DNA from: an uncultured Candidatus Saccharibacteria bacterium
GTDB taxonomy: Bacteria; Patescibacteriota; Andersenbacteria; UBA10190
Reading direction: 5' to 3'
Assembly (NCBI GenBank): GCA_964610055.1
Contig: CAZSUC010000002.1
Coordinates: 18,283 to 82,282, forward strand
DNA: 64,000 bases
How positions within the stretch are numbered: position 1 is the first letter of the stretch; every line of letters begins with the position of its first letter. Below the pieces are notes generated by a model, which was not told where the DNA came from, searched no databases, and saw only the letters and a list, made by a program, of their open reading frames with translations. Shown here piece by piece: positions 14,328-58,281 of the stretch. The position numbers and the translations under genes were made by a program.

Positions 14328-15608
14328 ATGGCGAAAATTAAATGGGTAAAGGGAAGGCAAATTTTAGATTCGCGGGGTAATCCAACAGTGGAAGCGGATG
14401 TTGTGTTGGAGTCAGGAGAATTAGGGCGAGCAGCAGTGCCATCGGGAGCATCAACTGGTTCACATGAAGCAATTGAGTTACGCGATCAAGACCCGAAAGT
14501 CTATCAGGGTATGGGGGTGATGCGAGCAGTAGGGTATGTGAATAGTGAAATTGCCAATCAACTTGTGGGACATGAGGCGGGTGATCAAAAAGGAGTAGAC
14601 GAATGTTTGGTTAAGTTAGACGGAACGGATAATAAAAGTAGATTAGGAGCAAATGCAATTTTAGCGGTTTCTTTGGCATGTGCGAAGGCGGAGGCGTTGG
14701 CCGAACAGAAACCGCTATATCGTTATGTGTATGAATTGACAGGCCAGGAGCGACCGTTGATGCTGCCGGTGCCGTTAATGAATATTGTGAATGGTGGTAA
14801 GCATGCGGCTGGTTCGACTGATATTCAAGAGTTTATGATTTTGCCTTTAAGTGGGCAGAGTTTTGCAGAGCGAGTGCGTTTAGGGGCAGAAGTGTTTCAT
14901 GCCTTGAAAGCAGAATTAGGAAAAGCGGGGTATCGAACGACAGTCGGGGATGAAGGTGGATTTGCGCCAACGGTAAAATCGGGTAACCAAGAGGCGCTAG
15001 AGCTCATTAAACAGGCGGTGCAACAAGCAGGGTATGAACTAGGACGAGATATTAGTTTTGGATTAGATGTTGCAGCGACAGAATTATATGAAGAAGGGCG
15101 ATATAGTTTAGCGACGGAAAACAAAAGTCTAACGACAAAGGACATGATTGAGTGGCTAGAAGAATTAAGACAGAAATATCCGATTATTTCGATCGAAGAT
15201 GGATTGGCTGAAGATGATTGGGGTGGATGGACACAAATGAATCAAATAATGGGACAAGAAATCCAGCTCGTGGGAGATGACCTGTTGGTAACAAATACTA
15301 AATTTTTAGAACGAGCGATAAAAGAAAAAGCGGCAAATGCAATTTTAATTAAGCCGAATCAAATCGGAACATTAACAGAGACAATTGCGGCAGTAGCATT
15401 AGCTCATCAACATAATTGGCGGGCAATTATTTCACATCGTTCCGGAGAAACGGAAGACACAACGATTGCTCATTTAGTGGTTGGGTTAGGTACTGGTCAG
15501 ATTAAAACTGGGTCGATGAGTCGGACTGATCGCGTTGCTAAATATAATGAGTTAATTAGAATTGAAGAAGAATTAGGGGCGGAAGCCCAGTTGGCATCTT
15601 GGAATTGA
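14328..15608 (+). CDS. eno: enolase (phosphopyruvate hydratase)
   Basis: N-terminus ILDSRGNPTVEADV and SGASTGSHEA are canonical enolase signatures; 426 aa. Confidence 0.95.
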   Translation: MAKIKWVKGRQILDSRGNPTVEADVVLESGELGRAAVPSGASTGSHEAIELRDQDPKVYQGMGVMRAVGYVNSEIANQLVGHEAGDQKGVDECLVKLDGTDNKSRLGANAILAVSLACAKAEALAEQKPLYRYVYELTGQERPLMLPVPLMNIVNGGKHAAGSTDIQEFMILPLSGQSFAERVRLGAEVFHALKAELGKAGYRTTVGDEGGFAPTVKSGNQEALELIKQAVQQAGYELGRDISFGLDVAATELYEEGRYSLATENKSLTTKDMIEWLEELRQKYPIISIEDGLAEDDWGGWTQMNQIMGQEIQLVGDDLLVTNTKFLERAIKEKAANAILIKPNQIGTLTETIAAVALAHQHNWRAIISHRSGETEDTTIAHLVVGLGTGQIKTGSMSRTDRVAKYNELIRIEEELGAEAQLASWN

Positions 15609-35655: not shown

Positions 35656-37107
35656 ATGGAAGAAAAACCACGTCGGCGTAAGCAGACAAAAGTAGTATGT
35701 ACGATGGGGCCGGCATCGGAGACGGTTGAGTTAATGAAAGAGATGGTGGCGGCGGGTATGAACGTGTGCCGATTGAATTTTTCTCACGGGACATATGAAC
35801 ATCATCAGATGTTGCTTGATAATATTCGAGCGGTAAGTGCGGAAACGAATGTGCCGTTGGCGATTATGGCGGATTTGCAGGGACCCCGAATTAGAACAGG
35901 ACTACTACCAGAACAAGGCGTGTTGGTGAAAGTTGGTGAAACAGTCACGCTGTCGGCGGAAGCTAAAGAATATAAGGATGAAATTGTGCCGGTAACTTAT
36001 GGGGATTTGTATCGTGATTTAACAAAAGGCGAACGGGTATACATTGACGATGCGTTAGTGGTGCTCATGGTGAGAGAGATCGAAAAGAAGAAAATTGTAT
36101 GTGATGTTTTGCAAGGTGGGACGATTACAACGCATAGGGGGATGAATTTTCCAGATTCAAAACTGCGGATTGAGACGATTACTGCAAAAGATAAACAGGA
36201 TTTAAAGTTTGCAATTCAGCAGAACGTAGATTATGTCGCATTGTCGTTTGTGGCGGGAGCAAAAGATGTGTATGACCTGAAATATCTGATCAAGGAATTC
36301 GCGGAGAAGCGTGATGAAGATGAGCGTTCCGGAATCATGGTGATTGCAAAGATTGAGAGGCGGGAGGCAGTAGAAAATATCGATGAGATTATTGAGGCGG
36401 CCGATGGGATTATGGTGGCGCGAGGTGATTTGGGGATTGAATTAGCGCCAGAGGATGTGCCGTTGTATCAAAGAGAGTTAGTGGACAAATGCTTAGCAGC
36501 GGCAAAGCCGGTAATTATTGCAACGCAAATGTTGGATTCAATGACACGAAATCCAAGGCCAACCCGAGCGGAAGTATCGGATGTTGCTAATGCGGTGATT
36601 AATCATACTGATGCCATGATGTTGTCAGCAGAGTCAGCCACAGGGGCGCACCCGGTGGCGGCAGTGCAAACAATGACCCGGATTGCTATGACGACCGAGG
36701 AATCGGAGTATGACGATTTAGTGGTGCAGGAATCATTGCAGCGATTACCAATTGATATGGCTGTTAGCCAAGTCGCACATATTTTAGCGGGTAGTGTGCA
36801 GGCAAAGTTAATTTTAGTAGCTTCTTTATCCGGAAACACAGCGCGGGTAGTGTGTCGCTATCGGCCGGAATTACCGATTTTTGCAACAACGGATAGTGAG
36901 CGAGTATATCGGCAATTAAACTTATCCTGGGGAGTAGTGCCGTTTGTATTGCCGACATGTAAGACGGTTGAAGAGTTAGTTGATCGCTCGATCGGATATC
37001 TAAAGAAGGAGAAACAAGTGGAGATTAGTGATAAAATTATTGTGATTGCAGGTGATCCAGTGGGAAGCAGTGGAGTTAATCTGGTTGAGATTAGAGAAAT
37101 AAAATAA
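35656..37107 (+). CDS. pyk: pyruvate kinase
   Basis: N-terminus TKVVCTMGPASE, MVARGDLGIE active-site region, ~483 aa. Confidence 0.9.
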   Translation: MEEKPRRRKQTKVVCTMGPASETVELMKEMVAAGMNVCRLNFSHGTYEHHQMLLDNIRAVSAETNVPLAIMADLQGPRIRTGLLPEQGVLVKVGETVTLSAEAKEYKDEIVPVTYGDLYRDLTKGERVYIDDALVVLMVREIEKKKIVCDVLQGGTITTHRGMNFPDSKLRIETITAKDKQDLKFAIQQNVDYVALSFVAGAKDVYDLKYLIKEFAEKRDEDERSGIMVIAKIERREAVENIDEIIEAADGIMVARGDLGIELAPEDVPLYQRELVDKCLAAAKPVIIATQMLDSMTRNPRPTRAEVSDVANAVINHTDAMMLSAESATGAHPVAAVQTMTRIAMTTEESEYDDLVVQESLQRLPIDMAVSQVAHILAGSVQAKLILVASLSGNTARVVCRYRPELPIFATTDSERVYRQLNLSWGVVPFVLPTCKTVEELVDRSIGYLKKEKQVEISDKIIVIAGDPVGSSGVNLVEIREIK

Positions 37108-37134
37108 ACGTAATTATTAAAAATATTTAAAACT

Positions 37135-39525
37135 ATGGCAGACCAAGCAACCATAATGTGGTTTAAGGATATAACTATTAAAGATGTACCGCTGGTCGGA
37201 GGAAAGAATGCTTCCTTGGGTGAAATGTATCAAAAATTGACACCGCAGGGAGCGCGAGTTCCAAATGGGTTTGCTGTGACTGCTTATGCGTACGAAAGGT
37301 TTTTAAAAGAAGCAGGGATTAGAGAGAAAGTGAAGGAAATTGTGGAAGGGGCGGATAATAATGATGTGGATGACTTGAAGCGGCGGGGTGCAAAAATTCG
37401 GCAGATTATTTTAGAAGCGAATTATCCGACTGATATTGAGAAAGAAATTGTGGAGGCATATAAATGGTTAAGTGAAGAGTGTGGAGCGAAAGAAGTGGAT
37501 GTAGCAGTGCGATCGTCGGCGACAGCAGAAGATGCGCCGGATGCGTCGTTTGCTGGACAGCAGGAAACTTATTTAAATATCAGCGGTCCAGAACAATTGA
37601 TTCTGGCATGTAAGCGATGTATGTCGTCATTGTTTACTGATCGCTCAATTTCGTATCGAATTGATAAAAAGATTAGTTTGTTTGATGTGGCTTTGTCGGT
37701 CACGATACAGAAAATGGTGAGGTCGGATGTAGGAGCGTCAGGGGTTATGTTTACGATTGATCCGGAATCTGGATTTAAGAATGTCGTGGTGATTAATGCT
37801 GCTTATGGGTTGGGAGAAAATGTAGTAAAAGGTGCCGTGACACCAGATGAATATTTTGTGCATAAAGAACTATTAGCAAAAGGATTTAGACCAATTGTGG
37901 GCAAGACACTGGGGTTAAAAGACAAAGCGATGGTATACACTGACAATCCAAAATCGCCGACAAAAAATGTAAAGGTAGAAGAAGAGCGACGAGTTCAATT
38001 CGCTTTGACGGACGATGAAATTTTAGAGATGGCTAAGTTTGGCATGATGATTGAGGCGCATTATGCGCGGCCGATGGATATTGAGTGGGCGAAGGATGGT
38101 GAAGATGGAAAGCTGTACATTGTGCAAGCGCGTCCGGAAACAATTCATGCTCAGCAGAGTGATTTAGAATATGAGGAGTATTTCTTAGATAAAAAGAGTG
38201 AGCCAATTTTAGAAGGAGCAGCGATTGGAGCTAAGATTGGCCAAGGCAAGGTAAAGGCAATTTTAGATGTGAAGGACATGGATACGTTTGAGCCAGGAGA
38301 GGTGTTGGTGACTGATATGACGGATCCGGATTGGGAACCAGTAATGCGAGTGGCAAAAGCGATTGTAACGGATAGTGGTGGACGAACGTGTCACGCGGCG
38401 ATTGTGTCGCGTGAGTTAGGGATACCGTGTGTGGTTGGCACCGGTGAGGCAACGAGTAAGCTAAAAGATGGACAAGAAGTAACAGTGAGTTGTGCAGAAG
38501 GAGAGTCTGGGCATGTGTATGATGGATTGCTGCCAATTCGTAAAGAGACGATCAATCTAAAAACTTTTCAGAAACCAAAAACGAAAGTGATGATGAATAT
38601 TGGAGTACCGCGAGAAGCGTTTGCGACAGCATTTATTCCCAATGAAGGAGTGGGGTTGGCACGTGAGGAGTTTATTATTGCGAACTTTATTAAGATTCAT
38701 CCCTTGGCATTGATGCAGTTTGCAGACTTAAAAGATACAGAGGCGCGGGCGCAAATTGAAAAATTGACGGCAGGATATGATGATAAGGCGCAGTATTTTG
38801 TGGATCAACTAGCTTGGGGAATGGGACGGATTGCCGCTGCGTTTTATCCTAAAGATGTGATTGTGCGTATGAGTGATTTTAAAACGAATGAATATGCGAC
38901 TTTGATAGGAGGAAAGCAGTTTGAGCCGGAAGAACATAATCCGATGATTGGGTGGAGAGGAGCTTCTCGATATTACGATCCGAAATATGAAGCAGCTTTT
39001 CGATTGGAATGCAAGGCATTTAAAAAATTAAGAGATGAAATGGGGTTTGCGAACGTTAAAATTATGGTGCCGTTTTGTCGAACAATTGCGGAAGGCAAGA
39101 AGGTGCTGGAGATCATGAAAGAAGAAGGTTTAGAGCAAGGCAAAAATGAATTAGAAGTATATGTAATGGTTGAGATTCCGGCGAATGTGATACTAGCGGA
39201 TCAGTTTGCTGAGTTATTTGATGGTTTCTCAATTGGAACAAATGATTTAACGCAGTTAACTTTAGGCGTTGATCGAGATTCGGCAATTGTGAGTCATGTA
39301 TACGATGAACAAAACGAAGCCGTTAAGATTTTAGTCAAAAGAACGATTGAGGCGGCGAAGAAAGCAAAGATTAAAGTTGGGATTTGCGGCGATGCGCCCT
39401 CGACGTTTCCTGAGTTTGCACAGTTTTTGGTAGAAAACGGGATTGATTCGATCTCGCTGACACCGGATGCGGTTTTGCCAACGACGTTGAAGATTTTGGA
39501 AGAAGAGAAGAAAATAGGGTTATAG
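37135..39525 (+). CDS. ppsA: phosphoenolpyruvate synthase (pyruvate, water dikinase)
   Basis: N-terminal VPLVGGKNASLGEMY, phospho-His region GGRTCHAAIVSRELGIPCVVG, ~796 aa three-domain layout. Confidence 0.9.
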   Translation: MADQATIMWFKDITIKDVPLVGGKNASLGEMYQKLTPQGARVPNGFAVTAYAYERFLKEAGIREKVKEIVEGADNNDVDDLKRRGAKIRQIILEANYPTDIEKEIVEAYKWLSEECGAKEVDVAVRSSATAEDAPDASFAGQQETYLNISGPEQLILACKRCMSSLFTDRSISYRIDKKISLFDVALSVTIQKMVRSDVGASGVMFTIDPESGFKNVVVINAAYGLGENVVKGAVTPDEYFVHKELLAKGFRPIVGKTLGLKDKAMVYTDNPKSPTKNVKVEEERRVQFALTDDEILEMAKFGMMIEAHYARPMDIEWAKDGEDGKLYIVQARPETIHAQQSDLEYEEYFLDKKSEPILEGAAIGAKIGQGKVKAILDVKDMDTFEPGEVLVTDMTDPDWEPVMRVAKAIVTDSGGRTCHAAIVSRELGIPCVVGTGEATSKLKDGQEVTVSCAEGESGHVYDGLLPIRKETINLKTFQKPKTKVMMNIGVPREAFATAFIPNEGVGLAREEFIIANFIKIHPLALMQFADLKDTEARAQIEKLTAGYDDKAQYFVDQLAWGMGRIAAAFYPKDVIVRMSDFKTNEYATLIGGKQFEPEEHNPMIGWRGASRYYDPKYEAAFRLECKAFKKLRDEMGFANVKIMVPFCRTIAEGKKVLEIMKEEGLEQGKNELEVYVMVEIPANVILADQFAELFDGFSIGTNDLTQLTLGVDRDSAIVSHVYDEQNEAVKILVKRTIEAAKKAKIKVGICGDAPSTFPEFAQFLVENGIDSISLTPDAVLPTTLKILEEEKKIGL

Positions 39526-46084: not shown

Positions 46085-46840
46085 ATGATTTTTATGAGCG
46101 AAGATAAAGCGATTAAAAAAGAAATTAGTAATATGGGTGTTCCGGCCGCGATTGTGATTGCGGGAGGATTGATTGCGCTGGCGGTGTATTTTGGAGGGCA
46201 ATCTGGCAATAATACTCAACAAATAACAGCACAAAATAATGGGGGAGTAACACCAGTGCCGACTGCGTTAGTAGTGGGTGATTCTGGTGTCGGTGAAATT
46301 AGAGACGTCACAACTAACGATTTAGTCCAGGGTTCAGAAGATGCGCCGGTGACAATTATTGAATATTCTGACTTAGAATGTCCGTACTGCAAGCGTTTTC
46401 ATACGACGATGCGACAAGTATTTGCGGATTATAACGGACAAGTAAGATGGGTGTTTCGACATTTCCCGTTAGATCAATTACATAGCCAAGCGCGCCAAGA
46501 AGCGGTAGCGGTAGAATGTGCGGCGGAACAAAACAAAGGCTGGGAATTGTTAGATAAGATTTATGAAGTTACAACTTCAAACGATGGTTTAGATTTAAGT
46601 ACTTTACCGCAATTAGCCCAACAAGTTGGCGTAGGGAATGCGAGTCAATTTACAACTTGTTTAACGGCGGGTGAGCATGATGATAAAATTGTGGCGGATG
46701 AAACTGACGCGCAAGTAGCGGGAGGCAGAGGAACGCCATATTCGGTTTTGATTTTGCAAGATGGAACCAAAATTCCTATTTCAGGAGCGCAACCGATTGA
46801 GAATGTGAAGGCCATTATTGACGCTGCCCTGCAATCGTAA
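46085..46840 (+). CDS. DsbA-like thiol:disulfide oxidoreductase (thioredoxin fold), membrane anchored
   Basis: N-terminal TM, active site CPYC, cis-Pro region typical of DsbA family. Confidence 0.7.
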   Translation: MIFMSEDKAIKKEISNMGVPAAIVIAGGLIALAVYFGGQSGNNTQQITAQNNGGVTPVPTALVVGDSGVGEIRDVTTNDLVQGSEDAPVTIIEYSDLECPYCKRFHTTMRQVFADYNGQVRWVFRHFPLDQLHSQARQEAVAVECAAEQNKGWELLDKIYEVTTSNDGLDLSTLPQLAQQVGVGNASQFTTCLTAGEHDDKIVADETDAQVAGGRGTPYSVLILQDGTKIPISGAQPIENVKAIIDAALQS

Positions 46841-49170: not shown

Positions 49171-51057
49171 ATGGCAGTGAATCTATTAAAAGTTGGAGAC
49201 AGGTTGATTGGCTCGGGGAAGCCGACGTTTGTAATTGCTGAGGCGGGAATTAACCATAATGGCAGCGTGGAGCGAGCCAAGGATTTAATTGACGCTGCAG
49301 CGACGGCGGGGGCGGACGCGGTTAAATTTCAGAAACGATCACTAAAAGATGTCTATCAAAAAGAAATTTTAGACAATCCCAATAAAGCAGAGCAGCGTTA
49401 TCAGGTTTATATTCCTTTATTAAAGGAGTTTGAGTTTTCAGACGAAGTGTTTTTGGAACTGGAAAAATATGCTCAGCAAAAAGGGATTATGTTTTTGGTG
49501 AATCCATGGGATAAACCCAGTGCGGACAAGATAGAGACGCAACTACATGTTCCAGTGTATAAAGTTGGGTCACCGGATTTAACAAACGATGAACTTCTGG
49601 AATATTTAGCTGCGTTTGGAAAACCAATGATTTTATCGACCGGCATGAGTAGTGCTGACGAGATTGATCATGCGGTAACATTATTGAAGCGCAAAAGAAT
49701 TGATTTTGCGCTTTTGCATTGTAATAGCACTTACCCGGCTCCGTTTGATGAAATTAATTTAAGATTTATGGAAGAATTGGCACGGTACGGGGTGCCGGTG
49801 GGGTATTCGGGGCATGAACGAGGGATAGCTGTTTCAATTGGCGCAGTAGCGCGAGGAGCTTGTATTATTGAGCGACATCTGACGGTTGATAAGGATTTAG
49901 AAGGACCGGATCATAAGGCCAGTCTAACACCGGAAGAATTTCAACAAATGGTTATGGGGATACATGAGGTGGAGCGAGCGGTTGGAGTAAGAGAGAAGAA
50001 ACTGTCTCGCGCGGAAGTAATGAATCGGGAATTATTAGGAAAAAGTATTGTCGCAGCGAAGTTTATTCCGGATGGAGCGATCATTACGCGAGCAATGTTA
50101 ACAACTCGTTCGCCGGCGAAGGGATTATCTCCACAGATGATGGATAAGATTGTGGGTTCGGCGGCACAGCGAGATATTTTTGAAGGAGATGCTTTAACTG
50201 AAGACGATTTAACCGGAACAAATTTTGAGCAAGAGTTTGAGACAGGAGGGATCAAGTGGCAATGGGGCCCGGTGGTGAGATTTAGTGATTTTGAACAGTA
50301 TCTGCGCTATCAGCCAAATTTATTTGAGTTCCATTTAAGTGATAAGGATTTAGAAGAGGACTTGCCGCAAGGAAAATGGAAGCAGCAATTAGTAGTGCAT
50401 GCTCCGGAATATATGAAACGAACATATCTAAATCCAGCAGCAGTTAATAGAGATGAGCGCAAAATAGCGATTAAGACTTTACAAAAGACAATTGAATTAG
50501 CGCGGAAATTAGGAGAGTCATTTGAGGGAGTGCCTAAGATTGTGATTCATCCAGGCGGGATTACTTTAAAACCGTATGATAACAAAAAGGAGCTGCTGGA
50601 TTTATTTAAAGATACTTTAAGTAAGTTGCCGAGCGATGGAGTCGAAATTTTACCGGAAAATTTGCCGCCACGAGCATGGGTCTTCGGAGGAGAGTGGGTA
50701 ACAAATATTTGGATGTTATCCGATGAGATTGAGAATTTTCTACAGGAGACAGGGTATAAGATGACTTTAGATACTTCTCATTTGGCTTTAGCTTGTAATG
50801 TTTATGGTCGGTCATTAAAAGATGAAATTAAAAGATTAAAACCATATATAAGGCACCTGCATGTGTCTGATGCGTCTGGTGTTGGTGATGAAGGTTTGCA
50901 GATTGGACAAGGAGACGTAAATTGGCAAGAAATTTTACAAATACTGGATGATTATAAAGAGACGATGGTGCCAGAGATTTGGCAAGGGCATTTGCATGGC
51001 GGAAGAGGATTTTTGCAAGCAATGCAACATTTAAAGACGTGGTGGAAGAAAGATTAA
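49171..51057 (+). CDS. NeuB-family nonulosonic acid (sialic/pseudaminic/legionaminic acid-type) synthase fused to xylose-isomerase-like TIM-barrel domain
   Basis: N-terminal FVIAEAGINHNGS ... AGADAVKFQ NeuB core and SAF domain (aa ~290-360), then ~270-aa C-terminal domain with VVHAPEY, IVIHPGG, LDTSHL, HLHVSD motifs of sugar-phosphate isomerase/epimerase TIM barrels. Confidence 0.75.
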   Translation: MAVNLLKVGDRLIGSGKPTFVIAEAGINHNGSVERAKDLIDAAATAGADAVKFQKRSLKDVYQKEILDNPNKAEQRYQVYIPLLKEFEFSDEVFLELEKYAQQKGIMFLVNPWDKPSADKIETQLHVPVYKVGSPDLTNDELLEYLAAFGKPMILSTGMSSADEIDHAVTLLKRKRIDFALLHCNSTYPAPFDEINLRFMEELARYGVPVGYSGHERGIAVSIGAVARGACIIERHLTVDKDLEGPDHKASLTPEEFQQMVMGIHEVERAVGVREKKLSRAEVMNRELLGKSIVAAKFIPDGAIITRAMLTTRSPAKGLSPQMMDKIVGSAAQRDIFEGDALTEDDLTGTNFEQEFETGGIKWQWGPVVRFSDFEQYLRYQPNLFEFHLSDKDLEEDLPQGKWKQQLVVHAPEYMKRTYLNPAAVNRDERKIAIKTLQKTIELARKLGESFEGVPKIVIHPGGITLKPYDNKKELLDLFKDTLSKLPSDGVEILPENLPPRAWVFGGEWVTNIWMLSDEIENFLQETGYKMTLDTSHLALACNVYGRSLKDEIKRLKPYIRHLHVSDASGVGDEGLQIGQGDVNWQEILQILDDYKETMVPEIWQGHLHGGRGFLQAMQHLKTWWKKD

Positions 51058-51097
51058 GGGGTTTGCAGACATTAATATTTGTAATTATCCTGGAATC

Positions 51098-51889
51098 ATG
51101 TTTAGACTAGAAAAATTTTATGCACAGGGGTTTGATCCGCAACTGTATTGGGATGATAAATACGCTAAAGAACACATTGCGGGGAAGAGTAGTGATGAAT
51201 TTAAGAAACAAGGATTTTGGCCATTATTAGAGAGTGTCTTAGAAAAAGGGAAACTGTATTTGGATGCAGGATGTGGAATTGGTGGCTGGATATTGTTTTT
51301 GAAAGAGCAAGGATATAACGTTGAAGGAATTGATATTGCGGCGCGGACAGTACGAGCATTAACAGAGTATGATCAAGAATTAAAAGTAAAAGTTGCGAGT
51401 ATTACTCGGATTCCATATGCTGATGAAACTTTAGATGGTTTGTTAGCGATTGGTACGTTGGAATATGTAGATGGAAAAGTGCCAGACGCATTGACTGAAA
51501 TTAAGCGAGTCTTAAAACCAGGAGGAGTGTTATTTGCGGAAGTGCCTATTGTGAATGGGGTGCGTAAGTGGTTATATCTTCCGCTGAAAAGAGTTGAGGG
51601 ATGGGTGCGTCGTCGACAAGGTAGGAAAGCCGTGTTTTCTAATTATTTATTTGATGTAGCTGCATTGCGTCAGAGTTTGGAAGAAGTTGGGTTTAAGGTA
51701 GAAAAGGTGCAGCCACATGAATTACCAGGAGCGAATAATCATTATGGACTATATATTGATTTTCCGTTTTTGCGTGGTAAAAATCCATATCAACTAAATT
51801 TGTTGGGGAGAGTGGTAAAGTGGATTGCAAATTCAATTTCACCGTGGGTTGCTTCAACAGGGGCGATATTTGTAGCGTACAAACAATAA
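51098..51889 (+). CDS. class I SAM-dependent methyltransferase
   Basis: motif I LDAGCGIGGW and VLKPGGVLF post-I region. Confidence 0.75.
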   Translation: MFRLEKFYAQGFDPQLYWDDKYAKEHIAGKSSDEFKKQGFWPLLESVLEKGKLYLDAGCGIGGWILFLKEQGYNVEGIDIAARTVRALTEYDQELKVKVASITRIPYADETLDGLLAIGTLEYVDGKVPDALTEIKRVLKPGGVLFAEVPIVNGVRKWLYLPLKRVEGWVRRRQGRKAVFSNYLFDVAALRQSLEEVGFKVEKVQPHELPGANNHYGLYIDFPFLRGKNPYQLNLLGRVVKWIANSISPWVASTGAIFVAYKQ

Positions 51890-51892
51890 GAT

Positions 51893-52327
51893 ATGTTTAG
51901 TTGGGTGATACCGGGCAAGAAGTGGCGTTGGTTTTTATTTGCTGCAGCGTTAGCGGGATTGATAATTTCTGGGTATTTGCTTCAAGCTTACGTGTCAAAT
52001 CGTCCAGTGATTTGCGGCCAGAGTGGTGGATGTGAAGTGGTGCGATTAAGTCGTTACGCGGCTTGGTATGGAGTGCCAACGCCTGCTTTAGGAGCGTTGT
52101 TTTATTTAAGTTTGGCAGGAGCGGCAGCATTAATGCCAATGGCCTGGAGCAAGGGAAAAATACTATTGATGCTAATGACGGCGGCTGGTATAGCTGTATC
52201 AGCCGGTTTGTCTTATATAGAGGCATTTGTATTGCACAGTTGGTGCCGGTGGTGCATTGGGAGTGCAGTCGTATCAGTCTTGACATTTATGCTTACATGG
52301 GTTATACTACCAGACTATGACAAGTGA
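51893..52327 (+). CDS. vitamin K epoxide reductase (VKOR) family protein
   Basis: 4 TM helices, loop Cys pair CGQSGGC and TM CXXC (CRWC). Confidence 0.65.
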   Translation: MFSWVIPGKKWRWFLFAAALAGLIISGYLLQAYVSNRPVICGQSGGCEVVRLSRYAAWYGVPTPALGALFYLSLAGAAALMPMAWSKGKILLMLMTAAGIAVSAGLSYIEAFVLHSWCRWCIGSAVVSVLTFMLTWVILPDYDK

Positions 52328-52961
52328 GACGAAAGGCATGTTAGGAATGCTGGTGATAACAGTCGCCATTATTGGTTTAGGAGCTTGGTGGGCGCATTGG
52401 AGCGATAATGGCCAAATTACCGGGGAAGTAGCGGGTGACGTTAATTTGTTATCGCGTTCACAAGAGGTAAATAATGAAGAGGTTGATATGCCAGTGACAT
52501 TGGTTGAATTTAGTGACTTTGAATGTCCAGCGTGTGCGTTATTACACGAACCGTTGCAAGAAGTAGTGAACACTAACGCAGATAAAGTTAATTTTATATT
52601 TCGTCAATTTCCGTTATCATCGCATGAATTTGCTGCGTTGGCTGCTCAGGCTTCTTTAGCTGCGCAGGCGCAAGGAAAAATGTGGGAATATAATGATATC
52701 TTGTTTAATAACCAAGAGGCTTTAGACAAGGACAGTTTAATAAAATATGCAGACCAGTTGGGACTGGATGTCGAAGTTTTTCGTAAAGCGTTAGACGAAG
52801 GGACATATACGGATGTGGTGCGGCAAGATGTGCAAGACGGATATGAATTAGGTTTGCAGGGGACACCAACGTTGTATGTGAATGGAGTGCAGTATATCGG
52901 ACCGTATACCGTGGATGGATTGCAGGCTGCGATTGATGAGGCGTTCGAGCAAGCGCGATAA
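52317..52961 (+). CDS. DsbA-like thiol:disulfide oxidoreductase
   Basis: N-terminal TM anchor, CPAC active site, adjacent to VKOR gene (overlapping start). Confidence 0.7.
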   Translation: MTSETKGMLGMLVITVAIIGLGAWWAHWSDNGQITGEVAGDVNLLSRSQEVNNEEVDMPVTLVEFSDFECPACALLHEPLQEVVNTNADKVNFIFRQFPLSSHEFAALAAQASLAAQAQGKMWEYNDILFNNQEALDKDSLIKYADQLGLDVEVFRKALDEGTYTDVVRQDVQDGYELGLQGTPTLYVNGVQYIGPYTVDGLQAAIDEAFEQAR

Positions 52962-52970
52962 TCTTAACTC

Positions 52971-53756
52971 GTGTATAACAGTATGCAAAAAGATTTTTCT
53001 TTAGAGGGGAAAACAATTTTAATTACTGGAGGAGCGGGATTTTTGGGTAAATATTTTACAGAGTCTTTAGCGGCAGCGGGCGGGCGCGTGGTGATAGCGG
53101 ATAAAGATGAGGCGGCTGCGATGGAAAGAGCAAAACAATTAGGAGCAGAACATATAGGAGTGAAGATTGATGTAACGAAGAAGGCTAGTATCGAGGCGGT
53201 TTTTGAGCAGATTGGGACTGTCGATGTGGTTGTGAATAACGCAGCGATTGATCCTAAGTTTGATCAACAAGCAGCAAAAAACGATCAATTATTTGAAAAT
53301 TACCCGGAAGAATTATTGGCTTTAAGCGTGAATGTTAATTTATTAGGGTATGTACGGGTGGCACAAGTGGCGGTGAAAAGAATGTTGGCGCAGGGTGGTG
53401 GTAATATTATTAATATTTCTTCGATTTATGGCATGAGCGGACCGGATCAAAGCATATATCCGGAAGGAACGCAGAAGCCAGTAGATTACGCGGTTACTAA
53501 AGGGGGTGTAGTAATGTTAACGAAGTGGTTGGCGACTACATATGGAAGGAATGGTATTCGAGCTAATACTTTGTCGTTAGGCGGAGTATTAAAAGGTCAT
53601 GACGATGATTTTGTGAAAAAATATGGTCAGCATAACGCCTTCGGACGCATGATGGATCCAGCGGAGGTGGGGGCGCCGTTAGTGTTTTTAGCGTCTCAAG
53701 CGTCACGTGGAATGACCGGGCAGATGGTTTGTGTTGACGGAGGTTGGAAAGTTTAG
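52971..53756 (+). CDS. short-chain dehydrogenase/reductase (SDR) family oxidoreductase
   Basis: TGGAGFLG Rossmann motif, NNAA, catalytic YxxxK (YAVTK). Confidence 0.8.
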   Translation: MYNSMQKDFSLEGKTILITGGAGFLGKYFTESLAAAGGRVVIADKDEAAAMERAKQLGAEHIGVKIDVTKKASIEAVFEQIGTVDVVVNNAAIDPKFDQQAAKNDQLFENYPEELLALSVNVNLLGYVRVAQVAVKRMLAQGGGNIINISSIYGMSGPDQSIYPEGTQKPVDYAVTKGGVVMLTKWLATTYGRNGIRANTLSLGGVLKGHDDDFVKKYGQHNAFGRMMDPAEVGAPLVFLASQASRGMTGQMVCVDGGWKV

Positions 53757-54694
53757 AGAGCTGGCCACCGGGAGGGATCAACTTGATCAGGATCAGTGAG
53801 TCCGAGAGAATTTAGTTTAGTTATAATGGCGGGTGGCAAGGATTCATACTGAACAGCGGCAATGGCGGTTTCGAGATGCTTGGGTTTGATAGTACCAATT
53901 AGGATAGTCGAGACAGCTGGATGAGAGGCTACAAAACGGAAAGCTAATTCAGGCAGGGTAATGCCAAGGTCATGGGCAATCTGAGCGGCTTGATCGGCAG
54001 CGTGGTTAAGAGGGTCAAGCTGAGCCGGTAAGGCAGAGCGTTTATCGGTTAATACTCCTTTGAGTAAGACAGAACGATTGATGATGCCGACGTTATTGGC
54101 TAACGCGGTAGACAAGACACGAGGTGCCATGCGTTGGTCTAAGATACTATAGGCAGTTTGAATAGTATGATAGTGTCCGGATTGAATAGCGGCGAGAGGA
54201 ATATCTTCGCCGCGAGTGGCAACGCCAAGGTATTTGATTTTGCCTTCACTTTGGAGGGATAGCATGATCTCGGTTAATTCAGGCAAATGAGCATAATCTG
54301 GTAGCTCTAGATGCAATTGTACAAGAGTAAGAGTGTCTAGTTTGAGCAAACGGCGGCTTTCATCAATTTCAGCGCGAATGCGTTGGGCAAGATCAGTGCC
54401 AGTGAGATCTGGTTCTTGTTTTAAGAATTGACCGCATTTAGTACCAATGGTGATGCCAGGGGTAGTACTGATGCCAAATTTGCCGAGACGTTCTTCAGCG
54501 AGACCATAAGCCCGGGCGGTGTCGAAATAGGTAATACCTAAATCAAGGGCTGATTTGAGAATATGCTCGGCTTCTTGATCGGTGGGAAGGCCTTTATTCG
54601 CAATGCCATAAGGCAGACCAATTTCAACGGTGCCAAGACCGATGCGGGAGATTGAAAGCCCGGTTTGGCCTAAAGTAGAGACAGGGATAGACAT
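53753..54694 (-). CDS. aldo/keto reductase family oxidoreductase
   Basis: N-terminal LGQTGLSISRIGLGT AKR motif, ~313 aa. Confidence 0.8.
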   Translation of the reverse strand: MSIPVSTLGQTGLSISRIGLGTVEIGLPYGIANKGLPTDQEAEHILKSALDLGITYFDTARAYGLAEERLGKFGISTTPGITIGTKCGQFLKQEPDLTGTDLAQRIRAEIDESRRLLKLDTLTLVQLHLELPDYAHLPELTEIMLSLQSEGKIKYLGVATRGEDIPLAAIQSGHYHTIQTAYSILDQRMAPRVLSTALANNVGIINRSVLLKGVLTDKRSALPAQLDPLNHAADQAAQIAHDLGITLPELAFRFVASHPAVSTILIGTIKPKHLETAIAAVQYESLPPAIITKLNSLGLTDPDQVDPSRWPAL

Positions 54695-54731
54695 AACTTT
54701 ATGCTAAGACATAGTGTGCTACACTGCCAAC

Positions 54732-55865
54732 ATGGATTATGGAGCTAAAAGCGTAACGGAACATAAAAAAACCGGCGGAAAGATTGAAATTAAGAGTAAA
54801 ATGCCGGTCACAAATCGAGAAGAACTGTCAATTGCCTATACCCCCGGAGTAGCGGCAGTAAGTGCGGCGATACGAGATAATCCAGTAGAAGCGCGTGAAC
54901 TAATTGCAACGAAAAAAATGGTAGCAGTGGTCACAAACGGGACGGCAGTATTGGGACTAGGTAATATCGGGCCAGTGGCTGCTTTGCCGGTGATGGAAGG
55001 GAAGGCCGTATTATTTAAAGAGATGGCTGGGATTGATGCTTTCCCGATAGCAGTACAGGCTGACAGTGCGGAGGAGTTTGTAAAAATTGTCGCAGGATTT
55101 GCGCCTACTTTTGGAGGAATCAATTTAGAGGATATTGCGGCACCGGAGTGTTTCGAGATTGAACAGAGGCTACAGGAAATGATTGACATTCCGGTTTTTC
55201 ATGATGATCAGCATGGTACAGCGATTGTAGTGTTGGCGGGACTGATCAATGCTTTGAAAGTTGTGGCTAAGAATAAAACTGAAATTCGAGTGGTGGTCAG
55301 CGGAGTAGGGGCGGCTGGTACGGCGATTATTAAATTATTAGCTGCTTATGGTATTCGGCAGATTGTAGCGTGTGACAGTATGGGAGTAGTTTATGCTGGA
55401 CGCGAAGGGATGAACGCAGCGAAAGATAATTTATTGGAAATGATAAGTGCGGAAACAAGAGCCAGAAGTATGTCAGAAGCTTTAATAGATGCAGATGTGT
55501 TTATTGGTGTGTCGGCACCAAATATCTTAACAGCAGAAGAGGTTAAAAAAATGAATGAGAAGGCGATTGTTTTTGCTTTAGCTAATCCTGTTCCAGAGAT
55601 CATGCCGGAAGAGGCAAAAGCAGGAGGAGCGATGATTATAGGCACTGGCAGATCCGATTATCCAAACCAACTCAATAATGTATTAGCATTTCCGGGAGTA
55701 TTTAAAGGTTTATTGGAATCCGGAGCAAAAATAGTAACCAATGAAATGAAAATTAAGGCAGCGGAAGCTTTGGCGAATGTTGTGACTAAGCCGAGTGTAG
55801 AGGAAATTATTCCGACGCCTTTTGATGAGCGAGTGTTACCAGCGGTAAGCGAAGCGGTGAAATAA
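54732..55865 (+). CDS. NAD(P)-dependent malic enzyme
   Basis: LSIAYTPGVAAV and GTAVLGLGNIGP motifs; start set to ATG 54732 (track ORF begins at upstream GTG 54714). Confidence 0.85.
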   Translation: MDYGAKSVTEHKKTGGKIEIKSKMPVTNREELSIAYTPGVAAVSAAIRDNPVEARELIATKKMVAVVTNGTAVLGLGNIGPVAALPVMEGKAVLFKEMAGIDAFPIAVQADSAEEFVKIVAGFAPTFGGINLEDIAAPECFEIEQRLQEMIDIPVFHDDQHGTAIVVLAGLINALKVVAKNKTEIRVVVSGVGAAGTAIIKLLAAYGIRQIVACDSMGVVYAGREGMNAAKDNLLEMISAETRARSMSEALIDADVFIGVSAPNILTAEEVKKMNEKAIVFALANPVPEIMPEEAKAGGAMIIGTGRSDYPNQLNNVLAFPGVFKGLLESGAKIVTNEMKIKAAEALANVVTKPSVEEIIPTPFDERVLPAVSEAVK

Positions 55866-55884
55866 AGAAGTGGGAGTAAGAGAA

Positions 55885-55912
55885 ACGGCTTCACTGATGA
55901 GAGTGAAGCCGT
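55885..55912 (+). other. perfect 11-bp hairpin ACGGCTTCACT-GATGAG-AGTGAAGCCGT
   Basis: 19 nt after malic-enzyme stop; no U-tract; possible terminator or stability element. Confidence 0.3.
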
Positions 55913-55966
55913 GAGCGGAGAAAGGTCGCACTGGTTAGTTTGTCAGGCCGAGGATGTAATATTAAG

Positions 55967-55995
55967 TTGACTAGATATACATATTGTTACATAAT
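55967..55995 (+). promoter_or_regulatory. sigma70-like promoter TTGACT-N17-CATAAT
   Basis: good -35/-10 with 17-nt spacer, ~60 nt upstream of ATG 56055. Confidence 0.45.
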
Positions 55996-56000
55996 ATATA

Positions 56001-56021
56001 GTTACGTTGTTGTGACGTAAC
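56001..56021. promoter_or_regulatory. inverted repeat GTTACGT-N7-ACGTAAC at predicted transcript start
   Basis: perfect 7-bp arms immediately downstream of the -10; operator or 5'-UTR hairpin candidate. Confidence 0.4.
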
Positions 56022-56054
56022 TTGAACATTGAAAACAGATTGCGAGGAGAGAAG

Positions 56055-56534
56055 ATGGCTGTTGTGCTGGTGTTGATTTATGCGATTTTTATGAGCACCT
56101 GGTGGGTGTTGATGAAATCTCTGATGAACAAGGGAGTACCGAATAATTTGATTAGAGCAGTATCTGGCATGGGAGCCGGTACATTGGTTATGTGGTCATG
56201 GTGGCAGGGGGAGGTAGAAAAAATTCCGTGGCAATTTTGGCCATGGTTTGCCGGGACTGTTAGCCTGAATGTTGCAATTGCTTTTGCTTACGTGAAAGCA
56301 ATGCAGAAAGAGGTGGCTTCAGTAGCAGTGCATGTCACGATGCTGGCTCCGATTTTAGCGATTGTTACGAGCTGGCTGCTAGGCGTTGATCATTGGCCGA
56401 GTAGTCTGACTTTAACTGGAATTACGGCGATAGCCAGCGGATTGTACGTTTTGCATTTCAATCCGCGAATGCACCAGAAGTTTCTTGATCCCCTAAGACG
56501 GCCGGATGCGCTATCCCAATTGATAAGCGGTTAG
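56055..56534 (+). CDS. half-size DMT/EamA-like membrane protein (5 TM), first of a pair
   Basis: start set to ATG 56055 after SD GAGGAG; five hydrophobic helices then hydrophilic tail. Confidence 0.5.
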   Translation: MAVVLVLIYAIFMSTWWVLMKSLMNKGVPNNLIRAVSGMGAGTLVMWSWWQGEVEKIPWQFWPWFAGTVSLNVAIAFAYVKAMQKEVASVAVHVTMLAPILAIVTSWLLGVDHWPSSLTLTGITAIASGLYVLHFNPRMHQKFLDPLRRPDALSQLISG

Positions 56535-56899
56535 TGCTGATGACGAGTCCTACTTTGGCACCGGGAATGACATTGCTTCTTTCGTGGGGCGGTGTATACG
56601 CACTGCTTTCTTGGTGGAATCGATCTGAGTTCGGAGCAATATCTTGGCGTAAAGTATGGCTGCCGTTAGTAACTATGGGATTGGCGTTTGGTTTAGCGCA
56701 AGTTTTTCAGGGAGCTGCGTATTACTGGCAAGATGCGGCAGCGGTCGCCTCTCTCAAGCGTTTGGATGCGCCATTTACAGTGCTCTGGGCATGGATATTT
56801 TTTCGAGACACTGAAGCTGAGAACGGAAGCTTTTGCTTTCGAATCACAGGAAGCATGATCGTGTTTGTAGGGGCATTGTTGATTGGCCTCGGAAAGTAA
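56534..56899 (+). CDS. half-size DMT/EamA-like membrane protein (4 TM), second of a pair
   Basis: GTG start overlapping previous stop by 1 nt (ATG at 56540); could alternatively be the 3' half of a frameshifted single DMT gene. Confidence 0.5.
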   Translation: MLMTSPTLAPGMTLLLSWGGVYALLSWWNRSEFGAISWRKVWLPLVTMGLAFGLAQVFQGAAYYWQDAAAVASLKRLDAPFTVLWAWIFFRDTEAENGSFCFRITGSMIVFVGALLIGLGK

Positions 56900-56956
56900 G
56901 TTAGGAGTTTGTTTGTTCCAACAGCTAGCAGGATGCTAGCTGTTTTCTTTAGATGA

Positions 56957-57427
56957 CTAAACAATTAATAGTGCTGTGTTTATTTTAACGACTATTTTAG
57001 AGAGGGGAGCGGGATGTATTGGAGTGATTTTGGGCATGTGCGCTTCGCCCGGGAAAAAGATGGCAAACATGCCAGGGTTAAGAGTGAGAGATGGGGCTGA
57101 AGCAGGCGCGGAAAAAAGTGTGTAATCTTGTGTGGGATTGGACTCGGTTTGATGAGCGGTTAATTCTTGGACCGGAAGCCATTCAATGATTTCTTGGCCA
57201 GCGAGGCAATAATGAAGATCGATGTATTGGTGGTGAGATTCAAAGGAACATTGAGTACGAGGAAGCGTTTTAGTCTGGATGACGTTAGCATAAATATCGT
57301 GGTTGCGAATAGGGTATTCTCCGGGGTCGAGTGGGTGATAGTCTTTGAGCCAATTGAAAATTTCTATCCAAGTAGGCGAGCTGAGGATAAGATAGGTTTG
57401 AGGGTGATTGATATAGCTGATTAACAT
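56957..57427 (-). CDS. YhcH/YjgK/YiaL (DUF386) family protein
   Basis: FESHHQYIDLHYCLAGQE matches the family H..YIDIQ..L.GEE core. Confidence 0.6.
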   Translation of the reverse strand: MLISYINHPQTYLILSSPTWIEIFNWLKDYHPLDPGEYPIRNHDIYANVIQTKTLPRTQCSFESHHQYIDLHYCLAGQEIIEWLPVQELTAHQTESNPTQDYTLFSAPASAPSLTLNPGMFAIFFPGEAHMPKITPIHPAPLSKIVVKINTALLIV

Positions 57428-57465
57428 AGGTTAAATTAGAAGAAGCTAATATTTTTACTATATAT

Positions 57466-58281
57466 ATGAATCAAGAATTACGTAATCCAAAACGAGAACC
57501 AGTTGAAGTTGTGGCGTTAATTCCGGCGCGGGGTGGACAGCAAAGTGTGCCGTATAAAAATTTGCAGAAATTGGGTGGCAAGACTTTATTACAATGGGCG
57601 GTTGAGGTGGCGTTGGCAGCGGACAGTGTTGATGCGGTGATTGTTTCAACGGAAGATGAGCGGATTGCGGCAGAGGCGCGAGCGTTAGGGGCGATAGTGG
57701 CGCCGCGTCCGGCCGAATATTCGCAACCAACAAGCGGAGATGCTGGTTTTTATCAACACGCGGTAAAATGGATGGAGAGTGAGTATAGTTGGAAGCCGGA
57801 ATTTTTAGTTAATTTGCGTCCGACGAGTCCATTGCGTTTCGTGGAAGATGTTAACAAGATGGTGAAATACATAAAGGAGTCCGGAGCGGATGGAGTGAAG
57901 AGTGTTATTCCGGCACCGATTCATCCGTACAAGATGTGGCAATTTGCGAATGAAAACAATCTGTCAGTTGGAGAGGCGGGAGCTTTGAAACCGGTGTTTG
58001 ATAATGATTTTCGGCGAGAGAATGGTCCAGATCAACCACGGCAGAAGATTCAGGAAATGTTTCCGGTGTATTTTCAAGACGGGCAGGTTGATATTACGCG
58101 GCGTAAATTTATATTACGACCGGAGACGTTGGAACGGGAAAATGTATGGGGTCAAAATATTCATGGTTATGTGCTGGATCCACGAACCAGTACTGATTTA
58201 GACAACCCAGAAGATTATATTCGCGCCGAGAAAATTTATGCCATGTTAACAGAAGAACGGAGTCAGGATAAAACGAGATAA
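57466..58281 (+). CDS. acylneuraminate (nonulosonic acid) cytidylyltransferase, CTP_transf_3 family
   Basis: ALIPARGGQQSVPYKN, GKTLLQW, VIVSTEDERIA match NeuA/PseF/LegF-type CMP-sugar synthetases. Confidence 0.8.
   Translation: MNQELRNPKREPVEVVALIPARGGQQSVPYKNLQKLGGKTLLQWAVEVALAADSVDAVIVSTEDERIAAEARALGAIVAPRPAEYSQPTSGDAGFYQHAVKWMESEYSWKPEFLVNLRPTSPLRFVEDVNKMVKYIKESGADGVKSVIPAPIHPYKMWQFANENNLSVGEAGALKPVFDNDFRRENGPDQPRQKIQEMFPVYFQDGQVDITRRKFILRPETLERENVWGQNIHGYVLDPRTSTDLDNPEDYIRAEKIYAMLTEERSQDKTR

Follow-up and report, generated by a model that had tools for sequence, protein, structure and literature searches.

The 64,000-nucleotide stretch of contig CAZSUC010000002.1 that we analyzed (the window), from an uncultured Patescibacteria member of the Andersenbacteria, contains a gene cluster that very probably encodes a single pathway of the nonulosonic acid (NulO) type. 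At its head is a gene for a fusion protein of 628 amino acids (aa), in which a NeuB-type synthase and a SAF domain are joined to a xylose-isomerase-like triosephosphate isomerase (TIM) barrel, and its other members encode a methyltransferase, a short-chain dehydrogenase/reductase (SDR), an aldo/keto reductase (AKR), a YhcH protein and a cytidylyltransferase that would form a cytidine monophosphate (CMP) sugar. As our best explanation, advanced tentatively, we propose that these genes are a compact, vertically conserved Andersenbacteria set for a CMP-activated, tailored, deaminated NulO of the type of 2-keto-3-deoxy-D-glycero-D-galacto-nononic acid (KDN). The KDN type of the sugar is a probable element of this proposal. 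A more doubtful element is that the TIM domain might be the phosphatase that acts on the 9-phosphate of the sugar.

The fusion gene occupies positions 49171..51057 on the plus strand as a single open reading frame (ORF) of 628 codons without internal stops. Pfam finds three domains in the protein. The NeuB catalytic domain (PF03102; aa 39-275, 49285..49995, plus strand) has an E-value of 4e-81 and 272.5 bits versus a cut-off of 22.1, and the SAF, or antifreeze-like, domain (aa 292-347, 50044..50211, plus strand) has an E-value of 5.4e-8 and 33.7 bits versus 21. The C-terminal TIM barrel (aa ~365-628, 50263..51054, plus strand) is matched by AP_endonuc_2 (PF01261) over aa 406-623, with an E-value of 1e-23 and 84.7 bits versus a cut-off of 31.1. 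A pair of CBS domains, which is present in many relatives (see below), is absent from the window's protein according to Pfam. An earlier note on this DNA, made from the sequence, had described a NeuB core, a SAF domain and a TIM barrel of ~270 aa in one protein, and had named four motifs in the barrel. The domain content agrees with the Pfam result, and the motifs lie where that note implied, i.e., HAPEY at aa 410-414, IVIHPGG at 457-463, LDTSHL at 533-538 and HLHVSD at 562-567. There is also no frameshift joining two genes, and the catalytic residues of NeuB, to which we return below, are in place. With an input of 44 family sequences, AlphaFold2 modeled aa 350-628 as a confident barrel (pLDDT 95.6, pTM 0.93). 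The model of the full-length fusion is poor (pTM 0.47), and the mutual orientation of the catalytic domains is not readable from it.

The fusion of NeuB and TIM domains is genuine and widespread, and is not an artefact. Among 5.8 billion proteins searched, it has relatives in at least 120 protein clusters, which share 62-81% identity, a length of ~626 aa and the same three Pfam domains; several of these clusters are named Candidatus Andersenbacteria. Conservation of the fusion in relatives, a check that the earlier note had proposed, is thereby established. In a 25-sequence alignment of the fusion, mean column identity is 73% across both halves, and a scan of species-representative genomes found 31 loci. 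Among 1.84 billion cluster representatives, 703 match the TIM domain at E<=1e-3 and 99 do so at E<=1e-30; NeuB stands at the N-terminus in 94 of the best 149. As far as these searches indicate, the NeuB-linked TIM subfamily is narrow. Its proteins occur in three forms: a NeuB-SAF-TIM protein of ~620-660 aa, as in the window; a protein of ~730-770 aa with an extra N-terminal CBS pair; and a stand-alone domain of ~270 aa, in addition to fragments. Cultured marine Gammaproteobacteria (Paraglaciecola, Glaciecola, Colwellia, Pseudoalteromonas and Marinomonas) and Amylibacter commonly have the CBS form, which is also present on a megaplasmid of Ensifer canadensis. Overall, fused or adjoining NeuB and TIM domains of this subfamily were seen in other Patescibacteria, marine Proteobacteria, the Ensifer megaplasmid and a phage-like contig. 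A blastn search with a fusion gene of the ~750-aa type found no match in all complete E. coli genomes.

We consider it virtually impossible that the fusion stems from misassembly or a frameshift, or that a DNA-repair endonuclease IV gene came to lie next to neuB by accident. Such a reading could draw on two loci discussed below: in L035, the NeuB and TIM parts share a frame with one stop codon between them, and in L039 an archaeal-looking stand-alone homologue lies amid translation genes. However, hundreds of independent assemblies have an uninterrupted ORF of ~626 or ~750 aa, and the 12 invariant columns of the family and its steady linkage to a cytidylyltransferase also rule this reading out.

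The NeuB part of the fusion aligns with the NeuB of Neisseria meningitidis (4ipi/1xuu) with an E-value of 2.5e-54. We checked it for the acids E25, E134 and E234, the metal ligands H215 and H236, the lysines and serines that bind phosphoenolpyruvate (PEP), and Arg314 of the SAF domain (all in N. meningitidis numbering). The catalytic and metal-binding residues that are kept are E24, K52, Q54, K131, S134, S156, H215, E234, H236, D247 and R313 in the fusion, and D136 is a conservative replacement of N. meningitidis E134. R313, which lies in the SAF domain and corresponds to N. meningitidis R314, is Lys in most relatives of the window's fusion. We predict that this part of the protein performs a PEP-dependent condensation with a hexose or hexose phosphate, giving a 3-deoxy-2-ulosonic acid. 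Judged by model scores, it is a member of the family and no equivalog of either NeuB or PseI: it reaches 345.4 bits with TIGR03569 (NeuB_NnaB), under the equivalog cut-off of 399.65, and 236.8 bits with TIGR03586 (PseI), under the cut-off of 340.25.

The domain is of a NANS-like subtype, with the motifs KFQKR, GYSGHE and GPDHKASL; more generally, the motifs KFQxR, GYSGHE and DHKxSL are found in 301 of 333 fusion-type proteins. Its identity is 38% with human NANS (237 bits, with a strand-2 loop of equal length) versus 31% with N. meningitidis NeuB (186 bits). Because confirmation of the NANS sequence used covers its C-terminal 67 residues (PDB 1wvo), this comparison is a lead, according to which the window's NeuB domain may be nearer to NANS, a user of phospho-sugars, than to N. 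meningitidis NeuB. Human NANS takes 6-phospho-sugars and yields the 9-phosphates of N-acetylneuraminic acid (Neu5Ac) and of KDN, i.e., Neu5Ac-9-P and KDN-9-P (PMC9000132).

To place the C-terminal domain, we ran a profile of 25 TIM-only sequences against the PDB. The best relative is MJ1311 (3wqo; E 1.4e-19), followed by the endonuclease IV entries of Mycobacterium tuberculosis (E 1e-9), Thermotoga maritima (E 5e-5) and Bacillus anthracis (E 1e-3), while UlaE, L-ribulose 3-epimerase and D-tagatose 3-epimerase are matched at E 0.01-0.04. In this comparison, which addresses the earlier note's question as to which TIM-barrel families the domain resembles, the domain appears closer to the branch of endonuclease IV and MJ1311 than to the sugar epimerases. 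Searching the PDB with the model of the barrel, Foldseek returned 207 matches at E<=1e-3; the 50 that were listed are all of the xylose-isomerase-like fold family. The top matches, with TM-scores of 0.68-0.69, are 3wqo (MJ1311), 2zvr/5h1w (TM0416) and 3cqj (UlaE), and endonuclease IV structures (4hno, 3aam and 2nq9) follow at ~0.63. NCBIfam reported no match of the fusion to the Nfo model at E<=0.01; for the TIM domain, PRK13210 scores 15.4 bits versus a cut-off of 200, and the match of the CbiR model is weak (E 0.004). The structure paper on MJ1311 reportedly describes all nine zinc ligands of endonuclease IV as conserved and the DNA groove as absent. MJ1311 has been listed as the Methanocaldococcus jannaschii homologue of endonuclease IV (PMC2770678). 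A full-text literature search for a tagatose 3-epimerase-like protein of M. jannaschii found no paper.

The domain shares with the endonuclease IV/MJ1311 branch (3wqo, 5zhz, 2x7v and 1xp3) the motifs HAP(E)Y...L(I/D)LAS, HPG, EN, DT(S/C)H and HxxD. The trinuclear center of endonuclease IV is held by H69, H109, E145, D179, H182, H216, D229, H231 and E261. In a sequence alignment, eight of these nine ligands have equivalents in the window's domain, namely H410, H460, E496, D534, H537, H564, D573 and E602. The ninth position, H231, is G575, so the D-x-H pair of the third metal site is lost, and the TM-scores are only 0.63-0.69. Across the TIM family, E386, H410, D534, H537, D567, E574 and E602 are invariant, and the window's subtype additionally has H460, E496, H562 and H564. 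In the CBS-type subfamily, to which the Serratia-like architecture discussed below belongs, H460 is replaced by N or S and E496 by Q, and the TIM domains of two other loci (L029 and L030) have neither H562 nor H564. A PPxPWxFGGxW loop after strand 4 is specific to the NeuB-linked clade. With the ketose 3-epimerases and UlaE/SgbU, the window's domain has in common its fold and the E-D-H-E metal ligands, and its highest TM-scores in Foldseek are with them. These enzymes differ in the catalytic Glu of strand beta-4, since Gln takes the place of this residue (E496 in the window's domain) in much of the TIM family. A role in DNA repair, like that of endonuclease IV, was rejected, as the gene context is always sugar biosynthesis.

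The genes that accompany the fusion are as the earlier note stated. Directly downstream lies a gene for a class I S-adenosylmethionine (SAM)-dependent methyltransferase (263 aa; 51098..51889, plus strand; Methyltransf_11/23/25). The SDR (261 aa; 52971..53756, plus strand; adh_short_C2, E 1.6e-39) is PtmA/FabG-like, with 179 bits for PRK09186 and 133 bits for FlagModPtmA, both under cut-off, and the AKR gene is convergent with it (313 aa; 53753..54694, minus strand; Aldo_ket_red, E 7.8e-39). Next come a YhcH/YjgK/YiaL protein (DUF386; 156 aa; 56957..57427, minus strand; E 1.2e-37, 129.6 bits) and, divergent from it, the CMP-ulosonate cytidylyltransferase (CTP_transf_3, PF02348; 271 aa; 57466..58281, plus strand; E 1.1e-16, 61.8 bits versus a cut-off of 22.6). 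The YhcH protein passes the cut-off of the TIGR00022 subfamily (85.2 versus 45.5 bits) and falls under that of the N-acetylneuraminate anomerase equivalog (105.1 versus 160 bits). For the cytidylyltransferase, the PseF equivalog gives 85.7 bits versus a cut-off of 205.7, and the KdsB models give at most 56 bits, also under cut-off.

We mapped the window's proteins onto 29 Andersenbacteria-type loci, in which the core order is fusion, methyltransferase, SDR, AKR, YhcH and CMP-synthetase. The methyltransferase gene follows the fusion in every one of the 29, and the SDR is likewise always present; the AKR is found in 27 (the remaining two loci end at contig ends), the cytidylyltransferase in 25 and YhcH in 23. 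The six core genes are contiguous over ~6 kb in most of these loci. In the window, the cytidylyltransferase gene begins 6.4 kb downstream of the fusion, and it is closer in most relatives. Because of this conserved synteny, we regard the six genes as one NulO gene set. The earlier note had proposed a nonulosonic acid pathway with tailoring of its product. The pathway gains support from the synteny; a modified product is the natural reading of the gene content, for which the ElaA/ElaC/ElaB system (see below) is a precedent.

Beyond the Andersenbacteria, NeuB, the TIM subfamily and a cytidylyltransferase are a recurrent functional trio, and their linkage holds across unrelated lineages. A CTP_transf_3 gene directly adjoins the fusion in loci L032/L033, L034, L036 and L037. 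L032/L033 have a Gram-negative capsule locus (wza, wzi, rml genes, wzz, CTP_transf_3, fusion, wzx and wzy); L034 has radical SAM, CTP_transf_3 and fusion genes; L036 has CTP_transf_3, the fusion, a methyltransferase and glycosyltransferases; and L037 has ManC (GMP and PMI domains), CTP_transf_3 and the fusion. A ManC gene with a PMI domain, which would supply mannose 6-phosphate (Man-6-P), is near the fusion in both L034 and L037. In four independent contexts, the CTP_transf_3 gene is the sole NulO gene beside the fusion. Two loci have split forms, in which the NeuB and TIM genes are still neighbors. In L035, the order is NeuB-SAF, stand-alone TIM, SDR, CTP_transf_3, class III aminotransferase and methyltransferase. 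In L040 (1-12861), a phage-like contig, it is CTP_transf_3, radical SAM, methyltransferase, NeuB without SAF, an ORF of 83 aa, stand-alone TIM and a gene for an MptE-like protein (DUF115, which we take to be a Maf-type domain). In the loci examined, neither a hydrolysing 2-epimerase nor a dehydratase-aminotransferase-acetyltransferase set of the Pse or Leg type stands immediately beside the fusion.

The earlier note did not know the fusion from characterized pathways. However, it is common in databases, where NCBI names it 'N-acetylneuraminate synthase family protein' and JGI 'SpsE/sugar phosphate isomerase/epimerase', and it has been described in Serratia marcescens (PMC9000132). The KL1 and KL2 capsule loci of this species start with neuA and neuB (Anderson et al. 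2022, PMC9000132), and the NeuB (pfam03102), of 746 aa, bears an extra sugar phosphate isomerase/epimerase (COG1082) domain. In KL1/KL2 strains the ratio of KDN to Neu5Ac is ~20:1, and deletion of neuB abolishes both sialic acid and capsule (PMC9000132). A later publication by this group contains no further biochemistry, and the fusion goes unmentioned in a large phylogenetic study of NeuB. In a full-text search for a nonulosonic acid pathway and Patescibacteria together, we found no paper. A NeuB with a COG1082 domain was therefore already known in Serratia, and what is distinct here is the Patescibacteria host and the particular set of tailoring genes.

The Serratia and window systems both have NeuB and COG1082 domains in one polypeptide, a CMP-synthetase partner and no NeuC-type genes, and the Serratia gene order neuA-neuB-wzx is that of L032/L033. 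The length of the Serratia NeuB (~746 aa) fits the CBS form with the N[VI]GG/QTMPP subtype of TIM domain, whereas the window's protein has no CBS pair and the HPGG/ENLPP subtype. The window's cluster also differs in adding the methyltransferase, SDR, AKR and YhcH, and in its host, a member of the Patescibacteria whose genome has no capsule export locus. The KDN-9-P and Neu5Ac-9-P pathways, i.e., KDN-9-P synthase, HAD phosphatase and CMP-KDN synthetase in Bacteroides thetaiotaomicron, and NANS, NANP and CMAS in animals, follow the same three-step logic: a 6-phospho-hexose is condensed with PEP, the phosphate is removed, and the sugar is activated with CMP. The NANS-type GYSGHE and DHxASL motifs are common to the window's NeuB domain, but the window's cluster is without a gene for a HAD phosphatase.

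A precedent for the tailoring genes is the ElaA/ElaC oxidoreductase pair of the Acinetobacter baumannii KL49 locus, which with the cytidylyltransferase ElaB constitutes a NulO C8-epimerisation module that leads to 8-epi-legionaminic acid (PMC13656337). Of the pair, ElaA belongs to the Gfo/Idh/MocA enzymes, and the SDR is a FabG-like keto-reductase that acts on the CMP-sugar (PMC13656337). The window resembles this module in having an oxidoreductase pair and a cytidylyltransferase beside a NulO synthase. It differs in that the SDR is partnered by an AKR, where the module has a Gfo/Idh/MocA enzyme, so the likeness is one of working and not of family membership, and its substrate would not be di-N-acetylated. 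A full pair of Gfo/Idh/MocA and SDR domains, as a fusion, was found in L029, and the window's SDR is 38% identical to the SDR half of that protein and 36% identical to the SDR adjoining the TIM gene in L035. In Vibrionaceae nab clusters, a fusion of cytidylyltransferase and AKR is followed by a dehydrogenase (PMC7371886).

In the pathway that we propose, we infer which sugar is made, that the TIM domain is the phosphatase, where and in what sequence the tailoring enzymes act, and what finally accepts the sugar. The NANS-like NeuB domain would condense PEP with a hexose from central metabolism, most likely Man-6-P, to give KDN-9-P. The fused TIM barrel would then cleave off the 9-phosphate, standing in for the HAD phosphatase of the KDN and Neu5Ac-9-P pathways. 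YhcH may accelerate the interconversion of anomers or ring forms of the free sugar, and the CTP_transf_3 enzyme would convert it to the CMP-sugar. By analogy with the action of ElaA/ElaC on CMP-legionaminic acid, the SDR and AKR could invert one hydroxyl via a keto intermediate, and the methyltransferase would O-methylate the sugar.

Besides the profile matches to endonuclease IV, the likeness to NANS and the KDN of Serratia, two considerations support this proposal. To our knowledge, every Kdo-8-P, KDN-9-P and Neu5Ac-9-P route needs a synthase, a phosphatase and a cytidylyltransferase. Since there are loci with just the fusion and a cytidylyltransferase, two of them with a Man-6-P-forming ManC, the simplest closure of the pathway is that the TIM domain removes the phosphate. 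The other consideration is the absence of hexosamine-branch genes nearby. Neither the window, which was also scanned with Pfam, nor ~520 kb of related Andersenbacteria loci contains genes of the NeuC, Pse or Leg type, or aminotransferase or acetyltransferase genes, and tblastn found no homologues of Epimerase_2, HAD, PMI or class III aminotransferase proteins in the same DNA. For this reason a deaminated sugar of the KDN type is likelier, and the N-acetylmannosamine (ManNAc) or 6-deoxy-hexosamine substrates suggested in the earlier note are unlikely. A NeuC-dependent Neu5Ac route encoded within the cluster was also rejected, as no such gene is present there.

It is important to consider several points that weigh against the proposal. 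In L029, a HAD phosphatase shares a cluster with the fusion. A plain NeuB in the same locus also has the NANS-like motifs, so these are no marker of the fusion. The variation of ligands within the TIM family means that a common trinuclear site is not universal, and in structural comparisons of the model the TIM domain is roughly equidistant from ketose 3-epimerase-like proteins and endonuclease IV. The small-molecule enzymes of this superfamily are mostly isomerases, epimerases or dehydratases, and not phosphatases. AKRs are usually reductases, and an epimerase pair of SDR and AKR is therefore an analogy. The link between the Serratia protein and the fusion is one of domain content, the length of the CBS form and gene order, and two look-ups of protein clusters, which gave little taxonomy, contained no Serratia member. 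Finally, one Andersenbacteria-type locus (L014, 10001-21860) keeps the fusion, methyltransferase, SDR and AKR, and the conserved genes downstream follow with neither YhcH nor cytidylyltransferase in between; that genome must either encode the activating enzyme at another place or have lost it.

The principal rival, which we consider unlikely, is that the TIM domain acts before the synthase. It would then be a metal-dependent aldose-ketose isomerase or C2-epimerase, which converts fructose 6-phosphate or glucose 6-phosphate (Glc-6-P) to Man-6-P, or N-acetylglucosamine 6-phosphate (GlcNAc-6-P) to ManNAc-6-P, and passes the open-chain form to the NeuB site. Pfam and COG place the domain in a 'sugar phosphate isomerase/epimerase' superfamily, the best Foldseek matches (TM 0.68-0.69) are ketose 3-epimerase-like, and the canonical E-D-H-E ligands are present in the window's domain as E496, D534, H562/H564 and E602. 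Moreover, fusions of consecutive enzymes are frequent, and a C2 epimerase of the enediol type that acts on both Glc-6-P and GlcNAc-6-P would account for the mixture of KDN and Neu5Ac in Serratia. However, the phosphorylated product would still need a phosphatase, which the clusters do not encode, and the isomerase would be redundant beside the PMI-containing ManC of L034 and L037. Ketose 3-epimerases have two catalytic bases, one of which, the Glu of strand beta-4, is replaced by Gln in the CBS-type subfamily, and the profile matches to epimerases are far weaker than the 1e-9 obtained with endonuclease IV. With less probability still, the domain could act on the finished ulosonic acid, as a dehydratase or lyase comparable to IolE, AsbF or UxuA, with enolisation by the 2-keto group; the SDR and AKR would then reduce a deoxy or unsaturated product. 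Metal-dependent dehydratases are known in the superfamily, the SDR and AKR are conserved partners in the Andersenbacteria, and an SDR gene directly follows the TIM gene in L035. We nonetheless find this quite improbable: many loci have the fusion and neither SDR nor AKR, Serratia produces ordinary KDN and Neu5Ac with the same architecture, and no specific similarity to a dehydratase appears among the Foldseek or profile matches.

The remaining rival concerns the sugar. A classical amino-NulO (Neu5Ac, legionaminic acid or pseudaminic acid) might be made with a NeuC, LegB-G or PseB-G branch encoded elsewhere in the genome, with the TIM domain in an accessory or tailoring role. The 64 kb seen are a part of the genome, and Patescibacteria produce UDP-GlcNAc for peptidoglycan. 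The NeuB domain scores best with NeuB_NnaB (345 bits) and the cytidylyltransferase with PseF, R313 is equivalent to the Arg that contacts the N-acetyl group in N. meningitidis, and NAD-epimerase/dehydratase, DegT and Epimerase_2 genes occur in the wider L029 and L034 loci. Yet every equivalog cut-off is missed, R313 has become Lys in most relatives, no branch gene lies within ~10 kb in any of the 29 related loci or in the window, several unrelated loci hold just the fusion and a cytidylyltransferase, and Serratia, the sole organism with data, makes mainly KDN. We therefore rate an amino-NulO as improbable, and retain the KDN-type proposal.

If the KDN-type proposal is extended to all lineages with the fusion, a broader, rather speculative hypothesis emerges. 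The TIM domain might represent a new type of sugar-phosphate phosphatase, derived from the metallo-phosphoesterase lineage of endonuclease IV and MJ1311 and not from HAD phosphatases, and its fusion with the NANS-like synthase would then be able to make KDN on its own (Man-6-P + PEP -> KDN + 2 Pi). Endonuclease IV strips 3'-phosphates from deoxyribose, and CbiR, with the same fold and in the same superfamily, hydrolyses small-molecule phosphoesters as a phosphodiesterase. The module would have spread among Patescibacteria, Proteobacteria (clinical capsule types of Serratia among them), megaplasmids of rhizobia and phages, and the Andersenbacteria surface might display a methylated, epimerised KDN. 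NulOs shape the recognition of cells by hosts, phages and partners. Patescibacteria are ultra-small, live attached to other cells and have scant biosynthetic capacity, and a six-gene route from central metabolites alone would explain how a sialic-acid-like coat is within their means. The same fusion of synthase and TIM domains would underlie the KDN capsule of bloodstream lineages of S. marcescens. Assigning the TIM domain, whether as phosphatase or isomerase, would thus supply a missing piece of the one bacterial KDN pathway that is linked to virulence, and would add an activity to a well-studied enzyme superfamily.

Several genes in the cluster, which the earlier note left unmentioned, lie outside its conserved core. 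VKOR (51893-52327) and DsbA (52317-52961) genes are located between the methyltransferase and SDR genes, and a malic enzyme gene (54714-55865) and two half-size EamA/DMT membrane ORFs (56022-56534 and 56534-56899, plus strand, with a one-base overlap; EamA E 1e-10 for the first) between the AKR and YhcH genes. The VKOR/DsbA, malic enzyme and EamA genes are each found in just 2-8 related loci, and are lineage-specific insertions. The VKOR and DsbA pair, which is disulfide-bond machinery placed inside a sugar operon, occurs, apart from the window, in just 7-8 of the 31 related loci, and a second DsbA-like gene is located upstream of the cluster (46085-46840). The EamA pair is also found at this position, between AKR and YhcH, in L010 and partly in L001 and L019, and may be a heterodimeric accessory transporter tied to the sugar pathway. 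By tblastn, the window's methyltransferase has no match to those of L030 and L034-L037, and we rejected orthology with them.

Some related loci have unusual features of their own. In L035 (8909-10831), where the NeuB-SAF and TIM parts are in one frame with a single stop codon between them, the split may be natural, may stem from a recent nonsense mutation, or may be bridged by read-through. L040 has the phage hallmarks of a tail tape-measure gene and HNH/NUMOD3 domains, and it appears that a virus carries the same sugar module. L029 (3143-19022) is from a second Patescibacteria lineage and has the fusion within a larger glycan locus, together with the plain NANS-like NeuB, the HAD phosphatase, the GFO/IDH/MocA-SDR fusion (ElaA+ElaC-like) and a fusion of ketopantoate hydroxymethyltransferase and methyltransferase. 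The stand-alone TIM homologue of L039 (4982-5782), 34% identical to the window's TIM domain, lies amid archaeal-type Pus10, L21e, Rpb4 and KsgA genes, and seems to fit a source of the NeuB-linked clade in the MJ1311/archaeal endonuclease IV-like branch.

In the wider window, Rfam and tRNA scans were empty, and promoter and terminator scans were not usefully above shuffled expectation. The surface or pilin glycosylation suggested in the earlier note is conjectural; Pfam scans identified no transferase for the NulO in the cluster or the window. The sole glycosyltransferase-like genes found in the window, which encode an alpha/beta-hydrolase-GT2 fusion (27799-29244) and a weakly ALG3/GT-C-like membrane protein (10685-12142), do not lie near the sugar cluster. 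Genes of the PEP node, i.e., enolase, pyruvate kinase, a PEP synthase/PPDK-type enzyme and malic enzyme, are also present (14328-15608, 35656-39525 and 54714-55865), and their proximity to a PEP-consuming sugar pathway is possibly a coincidence. Three efflux-type systems are found within these 64 kb of a reduced genome (5217-9981, 24266-27644 and 30579-33823), comprising an AcrB-like RND pump with an HlyD-like partner and two MacB/FtsX-HlyD sets. Throughout positions 1-64000 the GC skew has strongly positive values (+0.10 to +0.40), also over the blocks of minus-strand genes at 22-28 kb and 30-34 kb, which resembles a leading strand with an unusually strong mutational bias.

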